Shown: positions 9,315 through 25,512 of the stretch, one piece after another
Layout of the letters: each line of letters starts with the position of its first letter
Numbering within the stretch: position 1 is the first letter of the stretch
From: Escherichia coli
GTDB taxonomy: Bacteria > Pseudomonadota > Gammaproteobacteria > Enterobacterales > Enterobacteriaceae
Direction: 5' to 3' (one strand)
Length of the DNA stretch: 33,115 nt
Assembly (NCBI RefSeq): GCF_003334385.1
Contig: NZ_QOWN01000049.1
Translations under genes and position numbers: made by a program
The notes under the pieces: generated by a model
The model's database searches: none
Told to the model about the DNA's origin: nothing
What the model saw: only the letters and a program-made list of their open reading frames with translations

Positions 9315-10291
9315 GCAAAGAACTGTTATCCGGTACGCCACTGAAATGGGTGGGCGGAAAAAGCCGCATCATGAACACACTGAAGGCGCACCTGCCAGAA
9401 GCCGACTGTCTGGTTGAGCCGTTCGTGGGCGGCGCATCGGTATTCATGAACACCAGTTACAAGCGTTACATCCTGGGTGATTCCAATGGTGCGCTGATTA
9501 ATTTCTACCGGCAAGCTAGGGACAACACCGACAGCCTGATCGACGAGGCGAAAACCCTGTTCCTGAACCACAACAACAGGGGTGACTATCTCATCATTCG
9601 CGAAACCTTTAACGCAGAGAATCATGCCTTCCTGAACAGCAGAACGGGAATAAGCGACCGCCGTGAACTGCGACTGGCCGCCATGTTTTTGTACCTGAAC
9701 CGACACAGCTTTAACGGTTTGTTCCGCGTGAACGGAAAAGGCGATTTTAACGTGCCTTTCGGCTGCTACCGCAAGCCCTACTTCCCTGAGCGTGAAATCC
9801 GCGCATTTGCAGACAAGGCAAACAGCACCCGAACGCTGCTTATCCACGCAGATTTTAAGGATACGCTGAACTCTGCCAGTCACCTGTTCGGCATGGGCAA
9901 CACGCTTTGCGTGTACTGCGATCCCCCTTACCTGCAATTCAGTGGCCGGGACAATTTTACCGCCTACGGAAAACCATTCGATGAAGACGAGCACGTTCGT
10001 CTGAGGGCAGCGCTTGACCGCCTTTCACAGGAAACGGGCGGCATGACCAGCATCACCATCTCCAATTCCGACACACCGGAAACCAGACGCATTTATCAGG
10101 GTTACCGGATGAACACCATCCTGGCACCACGAAGCGTTGGCGCAAGAACCCGGGAATCAGCACCGGAGGTTATCGCCACCCTGAGACAGTGCGACGCCTG
10201 CGGTCGCCATGGCGGTGGCTACTGCCCGGACTGCGGACCTGTAACGGAAGATGCAACTTACAGCGCGATGTTAATCACCGCCAGTACGTAA
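9311..10291 (+). CDS. dam: DNA adenine (N6) methyltransferase, Dam family, with C-terminal Cys4 extension
   Basis: N-terminal PLKWVGGK, FVGGASVF and catalytic DPPY motif typical of Dam-family MTases; C-terminal CDACGRHGGGYCPDCGP is zinc-ribbon-like. Confidence 0.88.
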   Translation: MSKELLSGTPLKWVGGKSRIMNTLKAHLPEADCLVEPFVGGASVFMNTSYKRYILGDSNGALINFYRQARDNTDSLIDEAKTLFLNHNNRGDYLIIRETFNAENHAFLNSRTGISDRRELRLAAMFLYLNRHSFNGLFRVNGKGDFNVPFGCYRKPYFPEREIRAFADKANSTRTLLIHADFKDTLNSASHLFGMGNTLCVYCDPPYLQFSGRDNFTAYGKPFDEDEHVRLRAALDRLSQETGGMTSITISNSDTPETRRIYQGYRMNTILAPRSVGARTRESAPEVIATLRQCDACGRHGGGYCPDCGPVTEDATYSAMLITAST

Positions 10292-11616: not shown

Positions 11617-11939
11617 TCTAACCACATCAGCACGCAACACAAAAACCGCTTGCCAGCGCTCGTCGTGTCGGGTTACATTTCCGCTGCACCTCATAAAACG
11701 GGTGCCGGGATTTCCACCCCGCTGACAAACGAAGCGCACAGCCGCGCCAGCGGTTTTTTTGTGCGTACTGTATCGCCACGTCTTTTTCGCGTCAGAATTA
11801 TGGCGGGGCGTACAGGGCCGACTTCGGTCGGGCCGGTTTCTTCGTTTGCCGGTTGTGGAAACCCTGTACGTCTCGCCACCCTGAGTTTTCCACCTCTGGT
11901 TGGTGAGTTTTCAAAATTCACAAACGAAGAGGCCACACC

Positions 11940-12161
11940 ATGGCAAACCGCAAGCAACAGCGCGCCCGCGCTGAGCGTCTTCACATCCGCAGCGAAATCA
12001 ACCGCAGACTTTTCCGCGCAACACGCGTCGCGCAAATCATGCATATCAACATGCTGCATGAGCGCACGCACGCACTATCAAACCGTTACTGCGCTGCCGT
12101 CTTCAGCTATCTGGCCGAAGACCTGGCAGAACTGCAAAGCCTCATCAACCAGCACCGATAA
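11940..12161 (+). CDS. Hypothetical small basic protein (73 aa)
   Basis: ATG 11940 with gaagagg RBS; arginine-rich; no domain recognised. Confidence 0.4.
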   Translation: MANRKQQRARAERLHIRSEINRRLFRATRVAQIMHINMLHERTHALSNRYCAAVFSYLAEDLAELQSLINQHR

Positions 12162-12229
12162 ACCACATCCGGAAGCTATCCCACACCTGCACGCGGGAGG
12201 CTTCCGCACATCTGTTACCGGAGGTTCTC

Positions 12230-12646
12230 ATGAAGAGCGTTAAGGGACTTTCAGATATTCAGGACTTCTTTAACTGGATGTGGGCGGTGGATCCCCTGCT
12301 GGCTTCCCGCCTGAACAACTGGCACGACTACTACCGCCGCGCCTGTAAACAGGCCGCCCGCAGCATCACCACATACGGGGATTTCTCCTTCACCGTTGAC
12401 GGTCGTTACCGCGTGGACGTGAAAGGTGACGGTGATGGCTTTGGTTTATTTCACATCAACGGCACCGACAGTACCGCCATCAGCTGGTCATCGTCAGAGA
12501 TGGCACTGGTTCTGGAAATGACAACCCACAGCGTGGCCGTGAAAGGCATATACACCGCAGAAGACTTTATCGGTGAATACCAGCGCCTTCTCGTGCTGTA
12601 CCGCGCGGCGTTTCAGGAGGTCACTGGCGGGGAGTACGACGCATGA
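12230..12646 (+). CDS. Hypothetical protein (138 aa) preceding replication gene A
   Basis: ATG 12230 with ggagg RBS; stop overlaps the A start (ATGA). Confidence 0.6.
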   Translation: MKSVKGLSDIQDFFNWMWAVDPLLASRLNNWHDYYRRACKQAARSITTYGDFSFTVDGRYRVDVKGDGDGFGLFHINGTDSTAISWSSSEMALVLEMTTHSVAVKGIYTAEDFIGEYQRLLVLYRAAFQEVTGGEYDA

Positions 12647-17601: not shown

Positions 17602-18645
17602 TCAGCTGGCGCCATCCTGAAGCAGCGAATAGGGATTAAAGCGCATCACTTCAACCCCAAGCCATTCATTGACATGCTTCATCGCTTCCATGACCGGTTG
17701 CAACTCGTTGATGAAAAATACCCTCGCCGCCTTCTCAACGTCACCGAACGCCGCGTTCCCGTCAGGCATTGCCCCCATCAGCTGAGGCGGTACACGGTGA
17801 GCCGCAAGGATATCGTCGCGGGCACTCCCCTTGATGTTAAGGAATTCGTCCTTCGCGGTGATTTGCTGGAACGGCAGTATTTGCACACCATCCTTGCCGC
17901 CACCTGGCGCGTGCAGAAGGATATTGCGGAACGCCCCCTTGCCACGGGATTCCGTGAGTGTTTTCTTGATGGCTTCCACGCTTTCAGCGTTTGCCTGGGC
18001 GGCACCAACATAGACAATGCACCCGGCATGTGAACCGTTGTCATAGTAGAGCTTGCGGAACGTATCCGCTGAGTTCGACAGACTCACCGACAGCAACCCA
18101 CCGATATACTCCGGCATCCCGTAGATTTCCTGGTTGATATCGGGGTTCAGAACGTGGCACACAGCCCCCTTACGGAAAGCAAATTCAGAACCATCATCAT
18201 TGAGGTACCAGTACGTATCGAGATCACTGCCCCGCCGCGTGTATTTCGCCAGCGCAGGACGAAGCGCAATGGGTTCACCGAACTTGTTGCGGCGGACTTC
18301 AAGATAGGCATTACCGAACACGAACCAGTCCAGCGCAAACGCGGAAAACGCCTGGCGGGACAGTAGCGGATGAGGAACAAAGCAGCCGTTCAGGGCATTA
18401 CGCTTAAAATACAGGGCCGACTGGTGCCATGATGCACAACGCGAGGCGCGAGCAATGGCATTCCAGTCCATGGGGGTGTCATAGTAGCGGCCATTATCGG
18501 CGCACGACATGTTATCAAGCAGATCAAGACGGCTTGCTTCATAAGGACCGTCAAACGTGAAAGCACTGAGTGACGGCGCTGATTTCAGTGCATCAGCCAG
18601 TGAGCCCGTGCCGCGCTTTCCGGTGTATTTTTTACGTTTACTCAT
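17602..18645 (-). CDS. Q: Portal protein, P2 gpQ family
   Basis: 347 aa, size and position matching P2 Q; immediately followed on the same strand by the large terminase. Confidence 0.88.
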   Translation of the reverse strand: MSKRKKYTGKRGTGSLADALKSAPSLSAFTFDGPYEASRLDLLDNMSCADNGRYYDTPMDWNAIARASRCASWHQSALYFKRNALNGCFVPHPLLSRQAFSAFALDWFVFGNAYLEVRRNKFGEPIALRPALAKYTRRGSDLDTYWYLNDDGSEFAFRKGAVCHVLNPDINQEIYGMPEYIGGLLSVSLSNSADTFRKLYYDNGSHAGCIVYVGAAQANAESVEAIKKTLTESRGKGAFRNILLHAPGGGKDGVQILPFQQITAKDEFLNIKGSARDDILAAHRVPPQLMGAMPDGNAAFGDVEKAARVFFINELQPVMEAMKHVNEWLGVEVMRFNPYSLLQDGAS

Positions 18646-18650
18646 TGTGT

Positions 18651-20384
18651 TCAGAACTCCATTGCAAAGCCACGATTATCCTCACGCTCTGCGCCGATTG
18701 GCTCATTGATAACAGCAAGCATGGTTGCCCAGGCGAGATCACCATGACTGACACCGCGTGAGCGGTCAGTGTCATAGGTGATATAGCCGCCGGGCGTCTG
18801 TATTTTTCGCACCGATGCAAAGGCCTGTACCAGGTCGCGCTCGCTGCGGTCATACTCCCAGCGTCCGGCACGGACCACCTGAAGCATCTTCATGACCAGC
18901 GCCCGCTTTGAAGCGATATTAAAGTTATACGGAACAGCCAGGGGGAAGAATTTTTTCACTATCTGATAAACCCCTTCCCCGTTCCCGCCGGTGACATCAA
19001 TCCCGATATGCTTCACATTGTATTTTTGGGTGTACTCCTCAATCAGGGCGGCCTGCTGTTCAAACTCCATGCCCTGAACCCTGACGGTTTCCACCGTACG
19101 AAAACGCCCACCGGCAACAAGGGGTGGCACGCACACCGACAGCGCCCCGCAGTCCCCCTTCCCGCTGCTGCCGTTGGCGTCATACCCGAGCCAGACTTCC
19201 CTCACCCCCATAGGGCGGACAGCAAAAGGCTTCCAGTCCGGCCATTCGTCATAGCCATCAACACCGCACCCGACGAGCGTATTCAGACTGAAGGCTGCCT
19301 CACCATCACGGACAAATTCGCACATGTACAGATTGCGAAATTCACTTTCTGTATTTTCGCCGCGAATATCATCAATACTGGTGAACTGCCATCCGTTAGC
19401 GACAGCATCCTCAATGGTGACAATCTGCCGCCACGTTTTGTCGGGAAAGAGCACGCCCCTCTTCAGGTGAGCATGTGAAACATCAAACTCACTGCGTTTT
19501 GAGCGTGGCTGTTCGCTGTTCCAGCGGTCCCCCGTCCAGAACTGATACGCCTCATGCATTTCCCCCGACGGCGTCGAGAAGTAAGTGCGCGTAAGCCCTT
19601 CCAGGGTCGCCATTGCCCCGGCAACCTTCCTGAGGTTCACAAAGTTACTGACCCAGAAAAATTCGTCGAATTTAAGATGACCGGTATAGGACTGCGCGGT
19701 GGCAGCTGACGTACCGAGGAAGTGCAGCTCCGCGCCGTTGGACAGCACGATCTTGTCGCCCCCTTTCAGCTCAACATCCACTTCCAGCGCCGCCTGCTGA
19801 ATAAAATGCTTGAACTGATACGCCTGACGACGGGAGGCGGACAAAAATATCTGGTTGCGCTGATACCCGGCGGAGACGTCATCACGCAGTGCATCAAGGA
19901 GCGCCTCGCGCGCAAAATACCAGGTCGCACCAATCTGACGCGACTTCAGGATCATACGGTTGCGGTGGTGACGGTTTTCGTACCATTCACGTTGATGCCA
20001 CGCCAGCGTCGGGAGGATTTTTTCACGAAGCGCGACAATCTGTTCTTCGGTGAAGTGATTTTTCAGTCTGCGTTTACGGGGCTTTTTACCGGAAACGGCC
20101 TGTTCTCCCTGACCGTCATTCAGTTTTTTCAGCTGGCGCGTGAGAAGGTCAATTTCCTTAAAATCGCTGCCGCTTTTCTCTGTTTTTGTGGTGAGCTGGA
20201 TCAGGCGCGCATCAATGGACTGGGTGACCCGCTGGATCGGAGGTGTGGCATCCCACTCATCGCGTTTTTTCCATGAGTAAATCGTGTTCTGGCTGATCCC
20301 CATCAGTTGCGAGATTTCCGCAGGTGTGTACCCTTGCCAGTAAAGTTGTCTTGCCCTTATGCGGACAAATGCATCCTGAATCAT
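18651..20384 (-). CDS. P: Terminase large (ATPase) subunit, P2 gpP family
   Basis: N-terminal HTH-like segment (YTPAEISQLMGISQNTIYSWKKRDEWD) and size matching P2 P; ATG 20384 has an aggggg RBS; the in-frame ATG at 20429 (592 aa) is the alternative. Confidence 0.88.
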   Translation of the reverse strand: MIQDAFVRIRARQLYWQGYTPAEISQLMGISQNTIYSWKKRDEWDATPPIQRVTQSIDARLIQLTTKTEKSGSDFKEIDLLTRQLKKLNDGQGEQAVSGKKPRKRRLKNHFTEEQIVALREKILPTLAWHQREWYENRHHRNRMILKSRQIGATWYFAREALLDALRDDVSAGYQRNQIFLSASRRQAYQFKHFIQQAALEVDVELKGGDKIVLSNGAELHFLGTSAATAQSYTGHLKFDEFFWVSNFVNLRKVAGAMATLEGLTRTYFSTPSGEMHEAYQFWTGDRWNSEQPRSKRSEFDVSHAHLKRGVLFPDKTWRQIVTIEDAVANGWQFTSIDDIRGENTESEFRNLYMCEFVRDGEAAFSLNTLVGCGVDGYDEWPDWKPFAVRPMGVREVWLGYDANGSSGKGDCGALSVCVPPLVAGGRFRTVETVRVQGMEFEQQAALIEEYTQKYNVKHIGIDVTGGNGEGVYQIVKKFFPLAVPYNFNIASKRALVMKMLQVVRAGRWEYDRSERDLVQAFASVRKIQTPGGYITYDTDRSRGVSHGDLAWATMLAVINEPIGAEREDNRGFAMEF

Positions 20385-20451
20385 TGACGCCCCCTTGCTG
20401 TTTGATCTCAAGAGTAAACGCCCGCGCATTCATCCAGGTATCCGGTGCCAT

Positions 20452-20469
20452 TGTCGCCACGCTCTTACA
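20452..20469. promoter_or_regulatory. Late-promoter activator site (TGT-N12-ACA dyad) in the divergent P/O region
   Basis: tgtcgccacgctcttaca in the 112-157 bp P-O intergenic region; P2 late promoters carry a TGT-N12-ACA element near -55 recognised by Ogr/Delta-type activators (established knowledge); spacing fits a start site ~27 nt before O. Confidence 0.5.
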
Positions 20470-20541
20470 ACATCGCCGCCTTGAGGCGCAGCCATCCCCT
20501 TATCATCATGAAGAAAAGCAACCCACAGAAAGGGGATTTAC

Positions 20542-21378
20542 ATGGCAAGTAAAAACGCGCCAGTACGGAAAAAATTCCGCGTCGCCGTCTCGGGCACCAC
20601 CATCGACGGGCGTGAGATTTCGGGGCTGATGTTGCGTCAGGCCGCTGAGAATTACGACCCGGAAGTGTGGGGGTCACGGGTGAACGTGGAGCACATGCTT
20701 TCACGTATGCCATCCAGTGAATTCAGTGCCGTGGGCGATGTGATTTCACTGTCCACCGAAGAAATCACGGAAGGCAAGCTGGCCGGTCGCACCGCACTGT
20801 ATGCCGAAATAGAGCCAACCCACCGTATGACGGAGATGTTGCGAGACGGCAAGAAAATCTACTCAAGCATTGAGCTTGAACCCAACATTGATGCCGTTGG
20901 CGGCCCTTACGTAATTGGCCTGGCAATGACCGATACCCCGGCAAGTCTCGGCACTGAACGACTGAAGTTTGCCGCCCAGCAGCGCGCCAGCATCATGCAG
21001 TTCAACAGCCGCAGCGGTGAGCCAGTCATGTTCACCGAATGTATGGAAGCGGAACTCGCGGCCTCCGTACAGGACAGCACCGAAGAAAGCCAGAAATGGT
21101 TTTCGCGCGTCATGGCGCTCATCAGTAAAACCCGTGACACGGACAGCGAGCAGTTCGCTCACGTGCGCGAAGCCGTCGAGAGCATTGCCACGGAACAGGC
21201 CGGCCTTCTGGATCGCTTCCATGCGATGGAAGAGCAACAGCGCAGTGATAAGGCATCACTGGAAACCCTGACCCGCGAACTGACTGAACTGAAGGCGCAG
21301 CTGAAAACCGAAGATGCAGACAAGGAACAGCGCTTTGCTTCAACCGGTGGCAACAGCCACGCCCTGGCTGATTTTTAA
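20542..21378 (+). CDS. O: Capsid scaffolding protein, P2 gpO family
   Basis: 278 aa; position between terminase and major capsid; acidic coiled-coil-like C-terminus; ggggattt RBS. Confidence 0.88.
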   Translation: MASKNAPVRKKFRVAVSGTTIDGREISGLMLRQAAENYDPEVWGSRVNVEHMLSRMPSSEFSAVGDVISLSTEEITEGKLAGRTALYAEIEPTHRMTEMLRDGKKIYSSIELEPNIDAVGGPYVIGLAMTDTPASLGTERLKFAAQQRASIMQFNSRSGEPVMFTECMEAELAASVQDSTEESQKWFSRVMALISKTRDTDSEQFAHVREAVESIATEQAGLLDRFHAMEEQQRSDKASLETLTRELTELKAQLKTEDADKEQRFASTGGNSHALADF

Positions 21379-21393
21379 CAGAGGAACAAAATC

Positions 21394-22488
21394 ATGGGAA
21401 ACCGCTTAACGCTTTCTCGCGAAGGCCGCAGCAATCTTGAGGCCTATCTTGCACGCCAGGCTGAACTGGCCGAAACCACCGTAGAACGACTGGGGAAAAC
21501 CTTCAGCGTTGATCCGGCTGTTCATCAGAAGATGGAAAACGCCATCAAAGAGAGCGACGAGCTGCTGAAAAGAATCAACAGCATCGGCGTTGACGATCAG
21601 GAGGGTGAAAAAGTCCTGGTGAATACCAGCGGCCCCATCGCCAGCACCAACTCAACCAGTGACGGCGTGAAGCGACGCAATCCCGCTGACGTCTCTGATC
21701 TGGCATCACGTCGTTATCGCTGCGAACAGGTGAACTACGACACCTTCATCAGCTACGCACAGATTGACGCGTGGAGCAGCCAGAAAAACTTCCAGCAACT
21801 GCTGAGTGCACAAATCACCCGACAGATTGCACTGGACCGTATCATGATTGGCTTTAACGGTGAGTCGCACGCCATCATCTCCGATCGTTCTGCCAACCCG
21901 AAACTTCAGGACGTTAACACCGGGTGGCTGAAACACATCCGTGAACACGCCACGACGCGTGTCGTGAAGGCAATGACGCTGACCCGTCGCGATCATGAAA
22001 ACAAACTGGTTGCAAAAGGCGACTACGGCAACGCTGACGCGATGGTTAACGACATTCGCTCTTCCATACTGGATGAGTGGCACAAGGACGCCCCGGATCT
22101 GGTTGTTGTCATGGGCCGCAACCTGTTCAACACGCTGCGTCTGCCTATGATTAACGCCATCAGCACCACCAACCCGAACACGGAGCTGGTCGCCGGACAG
22201 CTGATTACAGCCTCCCGCACCATTGGCGCGCTGCCAACCTTCTTTGCGCCGTACTTCCCGGACGATGCCATGCTGATCACGTCGTTCAGCAACCTTTCGG
22301 TCTACTTCCAGAAAGGGTCACTGCGTCGCTTCATCCGTGAAGAGCCGGAGTACAACCGTATCGCCACCTACCAGTCCATGAACGACTGCTACGTGGTGGA
22401 AGACTACGGCAAGTGCGCACTGATTGAGGGCATTTCTTTCGCCGGTGAAGATCCGGAAGACAAGAAAGAGGCAGAAGCACAGGCGTAA
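21394..22488 (+). CDS. N: Major capsid protein, P2 gpN family
   Basis: 364 aa; blocks such as DPDLVVVMGRNLF, PYFPDDAMLITSFSNLSVY and YVVEDYGKCALIEGI parallel P2 N as recalled; aggaac RBS. Confidence 0.9.
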   Translation: MGNRLTLSREGRSNLEAYLARQAELAETTVERLGKTFSVDPAVHQKMENAIKESDELLKRINSIGVDDQEGEKVLVNTSGPIASTNSTSDGVKRRNPADVSDLASRRYRCEQVNYDTFISYAQIDAWSSQKNFQQLLSAQITRQIALDRIMIGFNGESHAIISDRSANPKLQDVNTGWLKHIREHATTRVVKAMTLTRRDHENKLVAKGDYGNADAMVNDIRSSILDEWHKDAPDLVVVMGRNLFNTLRLPMINAISTTNPNTELVAGQLITASRTIGALPTFFAPYFPDDAMLITSFSNLSVYFQKGSLRRFIREEPEYNRIATYQSMNDCYVVEDYGKCALIEGISFAGEDPEDKKEAEAQA

Positions 22489-22496
22489 CGCATTAT

Positions 22497-22516
22497 GGCG
22501 GGCACATGTGCCCGCC
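22497..22516 (+). terminator. Perfect 20-bp GC-rich palindrome downstream of the capsid gene (hairpin / attenuator candidate)
   Basis: ggcgggcacatgtgcccgcc is its own reverse complement, 9 nt after the N stop; no strong T-tract follows, so it may be a partial terminator or processing element. Confidence 0.35.
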
Positions 22517-22537
22517 GGTTAATCAGGAGTCGAATAC

Positions 22538-23347
22538 ATGCTGACACCGGCACAACGATACCTTCAGCGCGTGATGGCGCATCATCGGGCTGATCCATTC
22601 AGTCGCGAAGAGCAGCGAACACGAACGGCACATGAACAGGTTCTTCACCAGTTACGCCTCGCCCAGTTGCAGCTGAAGGGCGTGCAGTCGAACATCGCGA
22701 AAGCGGAGCTGAAGAAGCACCTGATACCGAATTTTGAAGGCTGGATAGACGGCACGCTGGCAGGCGACAGCGGACGCCAGGACGAAGTCATTACCACCAT
22801 GATGGTGTGGGCAATTGACTGCCGGGATTATCCGCTGGCACTGCGTATCGGTGAGTACGTCATTCGTCACCGGCTGGCACTGCCGGACAACTTCGGGCGC
22901 GATTCGGCGACCGTGCTCACCGAAGAAATTGCCGAAGTTGTGCTGACAGAAGCCGCCACCAACAGCGAAACCGACTTATCCGGCTATATCCGTATGCTGG
23001 ACGAGCTGGATGCACTGGTTCACGACCAGGACATGCCGGATCAGGTTCGTGCAAAACTACATAAGGCGCGGGCATTTTCACGGCGCGCATCAGGCAGTAC
23101 GGAAGACATGACTGTGTCACTTGGTCTGCTGCGTGAAGCTATGCGCATCAATCCGGCAGCAGGCGTGAAGCGTGAAATCGCCACGCTGGCCAGAAAGGTA
23201 TCAAAGGTTCAGCCGGAACCGGAAAAACCGGCAGAAGAGAAAAGTAAATCGAAAGCAACATCAGGGCGCAAAAAGCCGACTACAAAAGCGACGGCCAGAA
23301 AAGCCACGAAAAAAACCGCCGCAAAACCGTCGCGCAAGGCGACCTGA
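22538..23347 (+). CDS. M: Terminase small (endonuclease) subunit, P2 gpM family, with Lys/Ala/Thr-rich C-terminal tail
   Basis: Position and ~245-aa core consistent with P2 M; caggag RBS; C-terminal ~50 aa are low-complexity basic (KSKSKATSGRKKPTTKATARKATKKTAAKPSRKAT). Confidence 0.8.
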   Translation: MLTPAQRYLQRVMAHHRADPFSREEQRTRTAHEQVLHQLRLAQLQLKGVQSNIAKAELKKHLIPNFEGWIDGTLAGDSGRQDEVITTMMVWAIDCRDYPLALRIGEYVIRHRLALPDNFGRDSATVLTEEIAEVVLTEAATNSETDLSGYIRMLDELDALVHDQDMPDQVRAKLHKARAFSRRASGSTEDMTVSLGLLREAMRINPAAGVKREIATLARKVSKVQPEPEKPAEEKSKSKATSGRKKPTTKATARKATKKTAAKPSRKAT

Positions 23348-23455
23348 TAACACCGGACCCGACCTCGTCGGCAGGCGGCGCGACCGGTGATCTGATCGCT
23401 GACTCCCGGTCATTTTCACCGGTCGCCCACCGCCTGATCTACAGGAGAAGACATC

Positions 23456-23950
23456 ATGAGCATGGTAGCCAGACCCCGTGTGAACGACGCCACGGATGAC
23501 ACGACAGACACCGACGACGGAGAAGCGCGCATCAGTACAGACGCGTTCTGGCCGGATATCGTGCTGAAAGAGCTGCGCCTTGCCATGCGCATTCCCGGGC
23601 GCACCACCACGTCACGTCTGCTGCATTCGGCCACCGAAGCTGTGGCACACGTAACGGCAGAGCTTGACACCTGGAAACAGAAACAGGAGGCGGCGGGACG
23701 GTCGACACTGGCGGACGTTCCGGCAGCACACATCAACGGTGAGAGCGTGAACGTGCACCGGTATCGACGCGCGGTGTATGCACTGACCCGCGCGGGCGTT
23801 CTTGAGCGTTCGCGGGATGTGGACACCACCGACAAAGGTGATCGCCGGGCCGATGCGCTGGACATGCAGATTGAAGATATGTGGCGCGATGCACGCTGGG
23901 CAATATCCGATATTCGCGGCGTCAGACGGATTTATGCGGAGCTGATTTAA
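23456..23950 (+). CDS. L: Head completion/stabilisation protein, P2 gpL family
   Basis: 164 aa at the gpL position; ggaga RBS; stop overlaps the X start. Confidence 0.8.
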   Translation: MSMVARPRVNDATDDTTDTDDGEARISTDAFWPDIVLKELRLAMRIPGRTTTSRLLHSATEAVAHVTAELDTWKQKQEAAGRSTLADVPAAHINGESVNVHRYRRAVYALTRAGVLERSRDVDTTDKGDRRADALDMQIEDMWRDARWAISDIRGVRRIYAELI

Positions 23951-24150
23951 TGAAGGTAACCGCGCATGACGGCGACACCGTTGACTTACTCTGCCAGCGT
24001 CATTACGGCATGACAAAGGGCGTGACAGAGCGCGTTCTGGCTGCCAATCCGGGGCTGAGTAACACGGTATTCCTCACTGCCGGGCAGGAAGTTGAATTAC
24101 CGGAAATCACACAGGAAAAACAGCGCGAAACCGTTCAGTTGTGGGATTGA
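23950..24150 (+). CDS. X: Tail protein X (LysM-like), P2 gpX family
   Basis: 66 aa (MKVTAHDGDTVDLLCQRHYG...) at the gpX position between L and the holin. Confidence 0.78.
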   Translation: MKVTAHDGDTVDLLCQRHYGMTKGVTERVLAANPGLSNTVFLTAGQEVELPEITQEKQRETVQLWD

Positions 24151-24152
24151 TT

Positions 24153-24443
24153 ATGTTTCAGAGAATTTACGACCACATTACGTTTTTCACATCCGTCATG
24201 GTCACCGGTATAGGGGTTATGACGCTGAGCGAGAAGATGGCGCTGGCAGGACTGATTCTGGGGGCGCTTTCACTGCTGCGCGGATGGATGCACAGAACAC
24301 GTATGGAGCAGGCACAGGAGCGGCGCAATGAGCTTATTGCACGCATTGCCGACCAGATGCAGCACCGACCACTAAAAGGCAGCGAGAAGCGCGCTCTGGA
24401 AGCCCTGAATGCAGACGGGGAATCACATGCCAGGACAGATTAA
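24153..24443 (+). CDS. Y: Holin (two predicted TM helices)
   Basis: 96 aa with hydrophobic segments ITFFTSVMVTGIGVMTL and MALAGLILGALSLL and a charged C-terminus; immediately upstream of the endolysin. Confidence 0.65.
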   Translation: MFQRIYDHITFFTSVMVTGIGVMTLSEKMALAGLILGALSLLRGWMHRTRMEQAQERRNELIARIADQMQHRPLKGSEKRALEALNADGESHARTD

Positions 24444-24966
24444 ACGCTATGCCGTTGCCGCCATCGTGGCGCTGGGTTTTTCGCTGGCCCCCGGGGAGCT
24501 GAGAACCTCACAGGAGGCACAGGAAAAAATTGCCACCTGGGAAGAGTGTCGGGCATTCCCGTACAGGGATATCGCTGGCGTGAAAACAGTGGGTTGTGGC
24601 TCAACGGGAAACGTCCCCGACCGCCACCATACCAAACAGGAAGTTGCCGGTCGATGGGTGAACGATTTACGACGGGCGGAGAACTGCATCAATCAGAATT
24701 TCAATGGCCGCGACATGCCACAGCGCCACTTTGAGGCAATGACGGATGCTGCCTTTAATCTGGGGTGCAAAGGCCTGATGTGGTTTAAGGGGCGTGACGG
24801 GAGGATGCACAGAACAACCATCTGGAAGTTCGCTCAGGGAAAGAACTGGAGCGCAATGTGCGGCAGGCTGACGGATTTTGTGAACAGCGGCGGACGCTAT
24901 TCACAGGGGCTGTTTAACCGGCGCAATGACTTCAGGAACTGGTGTATGAACGGAGTGAAGCAATGA
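24409..24966 (+). CDS. K: SAR endolysin (GH24 T4-type lysozyme domain with N-terminal signal-anchor-release segment)
   Basis: N-terminal weakly hydrophobic YAVAAIVALGFSLA followed by a catalytic E-x8-D-x5-T pattern (EECRAFPYRDIAGVKT); the alternative start ATG 24427 has the better RBS. Confidence 0.82.
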   Translation: MQTGNHMPGQIKRYAVAAIVALGFSLAPGELRTSQEAQEKIATWEECRAFPYRDIAGVKTVGCGSTGNVPDRHHTKQEVAGRWVNDLRRAENCINQNFNGRDMPQRHFEAMTDAAFNLGCKGLMWFKGRDGRMHRTTIWKFAQGKNWSAMCGRLTDFVNSGGRYSQGLFNRRNDFRNWCMNGVKQ

Positions 24967-25397
24967 AAACACCTGCCGTGTTGCTCTGGTTTCTTGCCAC
25001 CCTGTTGCTTTGTGGCCTGACAGGCTGGGAAGCATACCGCAAAGGGAAGGAAAGTCTCGGACGGGAACAGATGATGGACATCATAGAGGACAACCGCGCC
25101 GCCATGCAGGAAGTTCGCCATGCATACACAGACTTTTCCAGGGTGATAAACGTGATCCGCATTCTGGACCAGCAACGGATCACAGAAGGAGAGCAACGAC
25201 GTGAAGAAATGCAAAAAGCCGTGCAGGGCGACACGTGTGCCAGCGCTTATCCTCCCGCTGCTGTTACTGAGCGGTTGCAGCAACACGCCGCACACGTTGA
25301 AAACCAGACTCGTTTACGAGCCGGTGCCGACAGTTCTGACAAGGCAGACCCCGGTTCCGGCACTGGAAATACCCGTGACATGGTACAGGGTGACTGA
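24963..25397 (+). CDS. i-spanin (Rz/LysB-like inner-membrane spanin)
   Basis: N-terminal TM (AVLLWFLATLLLCGL) then charged coiled-coil-like region; ATGA overlap with the endolysin stop; embedded o-spanin ORF in another frame. Confidence 0.7.
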   Translation: MKTPAVLLWFLATLLLCGLTGWEAYRKGKESLGREQMMDIIEDNRAAMQEVRHAYTDFSRVINVIRILDQQRITEGEQRREEMQKAVQGDTCASAYPPAAVTERLQQHAAHVENQTRLRAGADSSDKADPGSGTGNTRDMVQGD

Positions 25398-25512
25398 ATG
25401 GAGCGATCGGCTACTGGAAGCACTCGACACATGCAACGCAGACAAGGCTGCGATCGCCTGGCTGGATAAACAAAGAGCAGAACGGGCGCAAGATGCGCCC
25501 CATCAGGAGTAA
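25201..25512 (+). CDS. o-spanin (Rz1/LysC-like outer-membrane lipoprotein)
   Basis: GTG start after ggagag RBS; lipoprotein signal with lipobox LLLLSGC; overlaps the 3' end of the i-spanin gene out of frame. Confidence 0.6.
   Translation: MKKCKKPCRATRVPALILPLLLLSGCSNTPHTLKTRLVYEPVPTVLTRQTPVPALEIPVTWYRVTEWSDRLLEALDTCNADKAAIAWLDKQRAERAQDAPHQE

Follow-up and report, generated by a model that had tools for sequence, protein, structure and literature searches.

A predicted single activator site shared by the divergent P and O late operons of a P2-like prophage in Escherichia coli

A single dyad shared by two divergent late promoters is an established design of the P2/186 phage family. The P2 record (NC_001895) holds one "activator binding site; pO, pP promoters" (3057-3087), together with annotated transcription starts at 3016 (minus strand) and 3127 (plus strand). 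Read from the sequence, the P2 site is TGT(3063-65)-N12-CCA(3078-80), and its center lies 55.5 bp from both mapped starts. Likewise, the record of phage 186 (NC_001317) contains one B-protein site (3798-3817) between the P and O homologues, annotated for "activation of pV and p12 promoters," and for Smp131, PP' and PO' have been listed as the same 18 bp on opposite strands (PMC3931495). The precedent for a shared site rests on these curated P2 and 186 records, PMC3931495, and PMC5694545.

Here, we analyzed a stretch of 33,115 nucleotides of E. coli DNA (contig NZ_QOWN01000049.1; referred to as the window), the left 4 kb of which is made up of dmsABC, with a prophage integrase next to it, at position 4336. 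Besides the late genes collected in Table 1, PHROG searches identified R, S, V, W, J, and I on the plus strand, as well as a P2 A-type replication gene. The tail-fiber gene H starts at 31527, carries a collagen-like Gly-X-Y run (32680-32850), and continues past the right edge of the window. The closest sequenced phages are the P88-like (Xuanwuvirus) prophages of E. coli, Klebsiella, and Enterobacter, with ~69% nucleotide identity across the region and a shared gene order. One difference from these prophages, P88 included, is found between lysC and R (window positions 25516-27715), where a DUF6645 gene (656 amino acids; PHROG 143, unknown function) and a DUF1378 gene (54 amino acids), both missing in the P88-like phages, form a segment resembling a moron that entered the late operon partway along its length. 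Between the DUF1378 gene and R, a strong hairpin (CCCTCCG-gtata-CGGAGGG; 27766-27790) was observed; its T-run is on the minus strand, yet no minus-strand gene ends there, and the plus strand contains no T-tract.

TABLE 1 Late genes and predicted regulatory elements around the P-O intergenic region (window coordinates)
Feature	Position	Strand	Basis
Portal protein (Q homologue), second gene of leftward late operon	17602..18645	-	PHROG portal protein, E = 4e-142
Terminase large subunit (P homologue)	18651..20384	-	PHROG terminase large subunit, E = 7e-146
Ribosome-binding site (RBS) AAGGGGG of P	20390-20396	-	Precedes ATG 20384
-10-like hexamer TACTCT, predicted leftward late promoter (pP equivalent)	20411..20416	-	Conserved as TAnTCT in relatives
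Extended activator dyad aTTGT-N12-ACAAc, proposed shared site for the prophage's Ogr/B-type late activator	20451..20471	.	Sequence and conservation
Weak -35-like TTGAGG, 17 bp upstream of CATCAT	20481..20486	+	TTG invariant; block score, 0.91; below sigma-70 scan threshold
-10-like hexamer CATCAT, predicted rightward late promoter (pO equivalent)	20504..20509	+	CAT-ATG invariant in alignment A2; block majority fraction, 0.97
Capsid scaffold/protease (O homologue), first gene of rightward late operon	20542..21378	+	PHROG head scaffolding protein, E = 1.4e-86
N, M, L, X, holin, endolysin, and spanins, downstream of O	21394..25512	+	PHROG matches

P most likely starts at ATG 20384 rather than at the start of the longest open reading frame (20429), since AAGGGGG precedes the former as an RBS, since PHROG matches begin at residue 15 or 16 of the longer reading frame, and since PGAP made the same choice in two sibling prophages. 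The left boundary of 20430 given in a first-pass annotation of this DNA thus corresponds to the longest open reading frame and not to the likely start of the P gene. With ATG 20384 as the start, the P-O intergenic region spans 157 bp (20385-20541), with its midpoint at 20463. A pattern search of this region returned one TGT-N12-ACA element, the 18-bp dyad TGTcgccacgctcttACA (20452-20469; surroundings, ...ccaTTGTcgccacgctcttACAAcat...), in which 12 bp separate the TGT (20452-20454) and ACA (20467-20469) half-sites, and did not return a second match at up to one mismatch. With its center at 20460.5, the dyad is offset from the midpoint by 2.5 bp and is 76.5 bp away from the ATG of P and 81.5 bp away from that of O, which bears out the earlier claims of a single clear dyad centered at about 20460 and placed symmetrically between the divergent genes.

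Judged by number alone, the motif would not stand out. The bare TGT-N12-ACA pattern occurs 8 times across the window, where shuffles give an expectation of 7.88 ± 2.76, and the extended pattern at one mismatch is found 10 times, against 14.1 expected, which is chance level; neither form is enriched window-wide. The perfect form of the extended pattern, TTGT-N12-ACAA, occurs only once in the window, and this single occurrence is the P-O dyad. Three of the perfect bare matches are found within the DNA adenine methylase gene (9558-9575, 9690-9707, and 9885-9902), and two of these, 132 bp apart, have a CCTGAACC core in common; they probably represent a coding repeat or chance. RNA folding produced no signal at the dyad region (z = 0.02), by which a hairpin was ruled out as an alternative for this region. 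With motif counts at chance level, the significance of the dyad cannot come from counting and has to be carried by its position and conservation.

To evaluate these, we retrieved 80 related loci by O-protein alignment and identified the start codons of P and O in every locus, a procedure that reproduced the annotated P2 and 186 intergenic lengths. A TGT/TcT-N12-ACA/cCA element was present in all 32 distinct related P-O intergenic regions, at 77.5 to 95.5 bp from the O start codon and, with the exception of the shorter L065 (56.5 bp), at 73.5 to 78.5 bp from that of P. In P2 and 186, the corresponding distances to P and O are 78.5 and 95.5 bp and 78.5 and 87.5 bp, respectively, so that the window's dyad differs from both by no more than 2 bp in its distance to P and by 6 to 14 bp in its distance to O. 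An alignment of 14 sequences (alignment A2) showed constraint on the half-sites (majority fractions of 0.89 and 1.00) and drift in the 12-bp spacer (0.57, against a background of ~0.55), with conserved -10-like blocks on either side of the dyad. Outside the predicted rightward -10-like hexamer, the invariant positions were T-T in the left half-site, ACAAC in the right half-site, and TTG in TTGAGG. That the dyad might be a functionless chance occurrence, a reading that could draw on the 8 matches versus 7.9 expected and on the lack of a structural signal (z = 0.02), is therefore hard to reconcile with a position kept in 32 distinct regions, with half-sites that are constrained while the spacer is free, and with the fact that, in the complete sibling prophage of E. 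coli G1/2, the only two perfect matches outside coding sequences fall in the two divergent late junctions. We consider this explanation effectively refuted by the comparative data and attach less weight to it than to either of the alternatives considered below.

By sequence and position, the window's dyad is the counterpart (orthologue) of the annotated Ogr and B activator sites of P2 and 186. As in P2, a single dyad is located between P and O, at ~55 bp from both (here, predicted) starts; in P2, the late region closes with ogr behind D, and an Ogr-like gene takes the same place in the sibling prophages described below. As in 186, one site would serve both the P and the O homologue through divergent promoters, and the 186 activator, a C4 zinc-finger protein, is likewise encoded after D. 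Several differences exist as well. The P2 P and O proteins are only ~40% identical to those of the window, and the right half-site is imperfect in P2 (TGT-N12-cCA), whereas the window's site is a perfect TTGT-N12-ACAA. Additionally, P2 has two more one-directional late promoters, pV and pF, neither of which is present in that form in the window's phage group. Phage 186 belongs to another genus (Eganvirus), has TGT-N12-cCA as its site, and carries a one-directional pJ site upstream of the tail sheath operon. The P88-like prophages share the dyad at both of their divergent late junctions but have TcT rather than TGT as the left half-site at both.

The promoters on which such a site would act are weak. 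A scan of positions 20250-20700 yielded no sigma-70 consensus promoter and no terminator, and the best core elements, TTGAGG/CATCAT (8/12 consensus) and TACTCT, represent weak core promoters lacking consensus -35 and -10 sequences; the absence of a consensus sigma-70 promoter is expected for activator-dependent promoters. The -10 assignments are thus weak hexamers picked by conservation. On the P side, the conserved block is AGAnTA, which reads TAnTCT on the minus strand (TACTCT in the window), and its P2 counterpart, TAGCCT, is found at an equal distance from the mapped P start (3016). From these elements, transcription starts are predicted (unmapped) at ~20516 on the plus strand and ~20404 on the minus strand, which would place the dyad center at about -55.5 relative to the pO equivalent and about -56.5 relative to the pP equivalent, in line with the earlier suggestion of a dyad roughly 55 bp from plausible starts on both strands.

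The two sides are not equally convincing, however: the rightward promoter has the conserved TTGAGG-17-CATCAT arrangement, while on the leftward side there is only TACTCT, without a -35-like element, and in many relatives the imperfect left half-site (TcT) makes the site itself asymmetric. One could therefore argue that the dyad serves one promoter only, or that the promoters use different determinants, with the second operon being driven independently, for example from a constitutive or otherwise regulated promoter. Set against this are the annotations of P2 and 186, in which both orthologous promoters depend on a single site, the lack of any other conserved dyad in the 157 bp, and a geometry that is symmetric to within 1 to 2 bp. 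We consider a one-sided or independent arrangement very improbable. The idea, already put forward in the first-pass annotation, that one activator site could serve both divergent operons is the reading favored by the single shared sites in the P2 and 186 records and by the location of the window's dyad at the orthologous position, conserved in 32 regions.

When P2 Ogr, 186 B, and the Ogr-like protein of the siblings (described below) were compared with the window by tblastn, no significant ogr-like coding sequence was detected, nor was a CX2C...CX4C motif found in any plausible gene of the window. With H running off the edge, the end of the late region is missing from the window but can be read, by proxy, from two complete siblings, both of which carry the gene just after D, as anticipated by the earlier proposal that an ogr-type activator gene lies beyond the right end. 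First, the dmsABC/serS locus of E. coli G1/2 (L011) is likewise occupied by a complete prophage, which is 99.3% identical to the window in its left part and 97.5% identical in its late part. In this prophage, a 100-amino-acid "ogr/Delta-like zinc finger family protein" is encoded 41 bp after D (L011:41461-41763), followed by a hok/gef toxin gene and then serS. Second, the prophage of NCTC9112 (L172) is 99.6% identical to the window in its late region and has the same D-ogr-hok end (Ogr-like gene at L172:42703-43005). Both siblings also depart from the window in their early parts. A segment of ~749 bp from the early region is tandemly duplicated in G1/2 (L011:11663-13160, corresponding to window positions 11663-12400). 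In NCTC9112, a different integrase and immunity module is found in place of window positions 4336-8000, and the prophage is integrated by yecA and a tRNA-Leu gene; this difference is a modular exchange of the early/left arm.

The sibling Ogr-like protein, WP_047645051.1, matches Pfam family PF04606 (Ogr_Delta; E = 1.6e-15) and shows 46% identity to P2 Ogr across 54 amino acids (the finger). Its cysteines, at positions 4, 7, 32, and 37, form a CX2C-X24-CX4C arrangement in a protein of 100 amino acids, whereas P2 Ogr proper has CX2C-X22-CX4C and ~72 amino acids, and its score against the NCBIfam Ogr equivalog NF007241 is 53 bits, versus a cutoff of 116. On these sequence comparisons, it is a member of the Ogr_Delta family but not an Ogr equivalog. 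Of 82 related loci, 59 have an Ogr-family gene no farther than 1.5 kb from D. The atypical nature of the local protein (100 amino acids, the wider cysteine spacing, and a score below the equivalog cutoff), together with the use of TGT-N12-ACA by unrelated regulators such as PpsR/CrtJ, might raise the question of whether the dyad is bound not by an Ogr-like activator but by some other protein, for instance a host factor or a different regulator of the phage. PpsR and CrtJ, however, are not E. coli proteins; moreover, the dyad occupies the position orthologous to that of the sites annotated for Ogr and B, an element of the same kind is present again at the other late junction, and an Ogr-family gene is linked in those 59 of 82 loci. 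We regard binding by another protein as very improbable, slightly more so than a site serving one promoter only, and retain an Ogr/B-type activator as the predicted ligand.

That other junction lies outside the window, between FI and D. Since the F operon is inverted, as in P88, FI (minus strand) and D (plus strand) are divergent, across 153 bp in the complete sibling prophages, and this is the only other divergent late junction of the complete prophage. It contains a second perfect dyad, cTGTggggatttttttACAAc (L011:40196-40213), with a GATGAT -10-like element ~55 bp to the right of the dyad center. In a 50-kb stretch of L011, 11 perfect matches were found: 8 inside annotated coding sequences, 1 outside the prophage, and the remaining 2 in the divergent late junctions. 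Among the loci retrieved with the D protein, FI was divergent from D, with a dyad at 78.5 to 88.5 bp from the FI start, in 82 of 82 cases. The left half-site is TGT in the window's lineage, while the asymmetric TcT-N12-ACA occurs at both junctions in the P88-like L020-L091 and L097-L171. The variant (TGT or TcT) agreed between the P-O and FI-D junctions in 20 of 21 contigs and in both E. coli genomes, although with few independent lineages and one exception (L018/L096), this concordance is supportive only. Among the Ogr-like proteins compared, no residue tracked cleanly with the half-site type: L102 and L103 share their N-terminal sequence but differ in their half-sites, and L096 combines a P2-like finger with TcT, so no residue is proposed as a determinant.

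Two bidirectional control regions appear to serve the late genes of the window's phage group, as opposed to the four separate promoter regions of P2. A more far-reaching version of this idea, to which we lean slightly less than to its opposite, is that the late regulon of the P88-like lineage has been condensed to two bidirectional sites driving four promoters (P-O and FI-D), without a separate pV-type promoter, and that the activator gene, 41 bp downstream of D, is part of an activator-dependent unit, creating positive feedback. Such a short distance may in any case allow co-transcription of the Ogr-like gene from the activator-dependent D promoter, with positive feedback as a possible consequence. 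R is not preceded by a dyad, and a third late promoter upstream of it was considered and rejected: the sole candidate, a TGT-N12-AAA with one mismatch, lies at 27747, at a distance of 132 bp from the start of R, and is not accompanied by a conserved -10-like element. The apparent "gap" in front of R in P88 turned out to be the lysC coding sequence, directly after which R follows.

Taken together, positions 20452-20469 are, with high probability, the site of the prophage's Ogr/B-family zinc-finger activator, the gene for which would lie after D, outside the window, and the site would be flanked by two weak sigma-70 promoters that face away from each other, with its center ~55 bp upstream of both starts. 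In the mechanism that we propose, the activator, made from the gene just after D, would bind the dyad, whereupon the leftward promoter would drive P-Q (terminase and portal) and the rightward promoter would drive O-N-M-L and onward, i.e., scaffold, capsid, small terminase, lysis, and probably tail genes. By analogy with P2 and 186, the bound, symmetric activator would recruit RNA polymerase on either side via the C-terminal domain of the alpha subunit; contact between the activator and this domain is established for P2 (rpoA109). We infer the starts from the conserved -10-like elements and, from what is known of the P2/186 family, that the activator binds the dyad, contacts the alpha subunit, and activates the two promoters jointly.

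The interpretation given in the first-pass annotation is supported by this analysis, but it restates the textbook P2/186 arrangement and is not a new idea. It does mean that the late promoters of a widespread group of P2-like prophages in E. coli, Klebsiella, and Enterobacter can be confidently annotated, with little import beyond annotation, and that the shared-site design of P2 and 186 has been retained in phages with P and O proteins only ~40% identical to theirs. The two-junction layout and its natural half-site variants might be suited to the study of bidirectional activation by a small zinc-finger activator and, if the late regulon has indeed been condensed to two sites, the TGT and TcT variants could help to dissect DNA recognition by the Ogr family.
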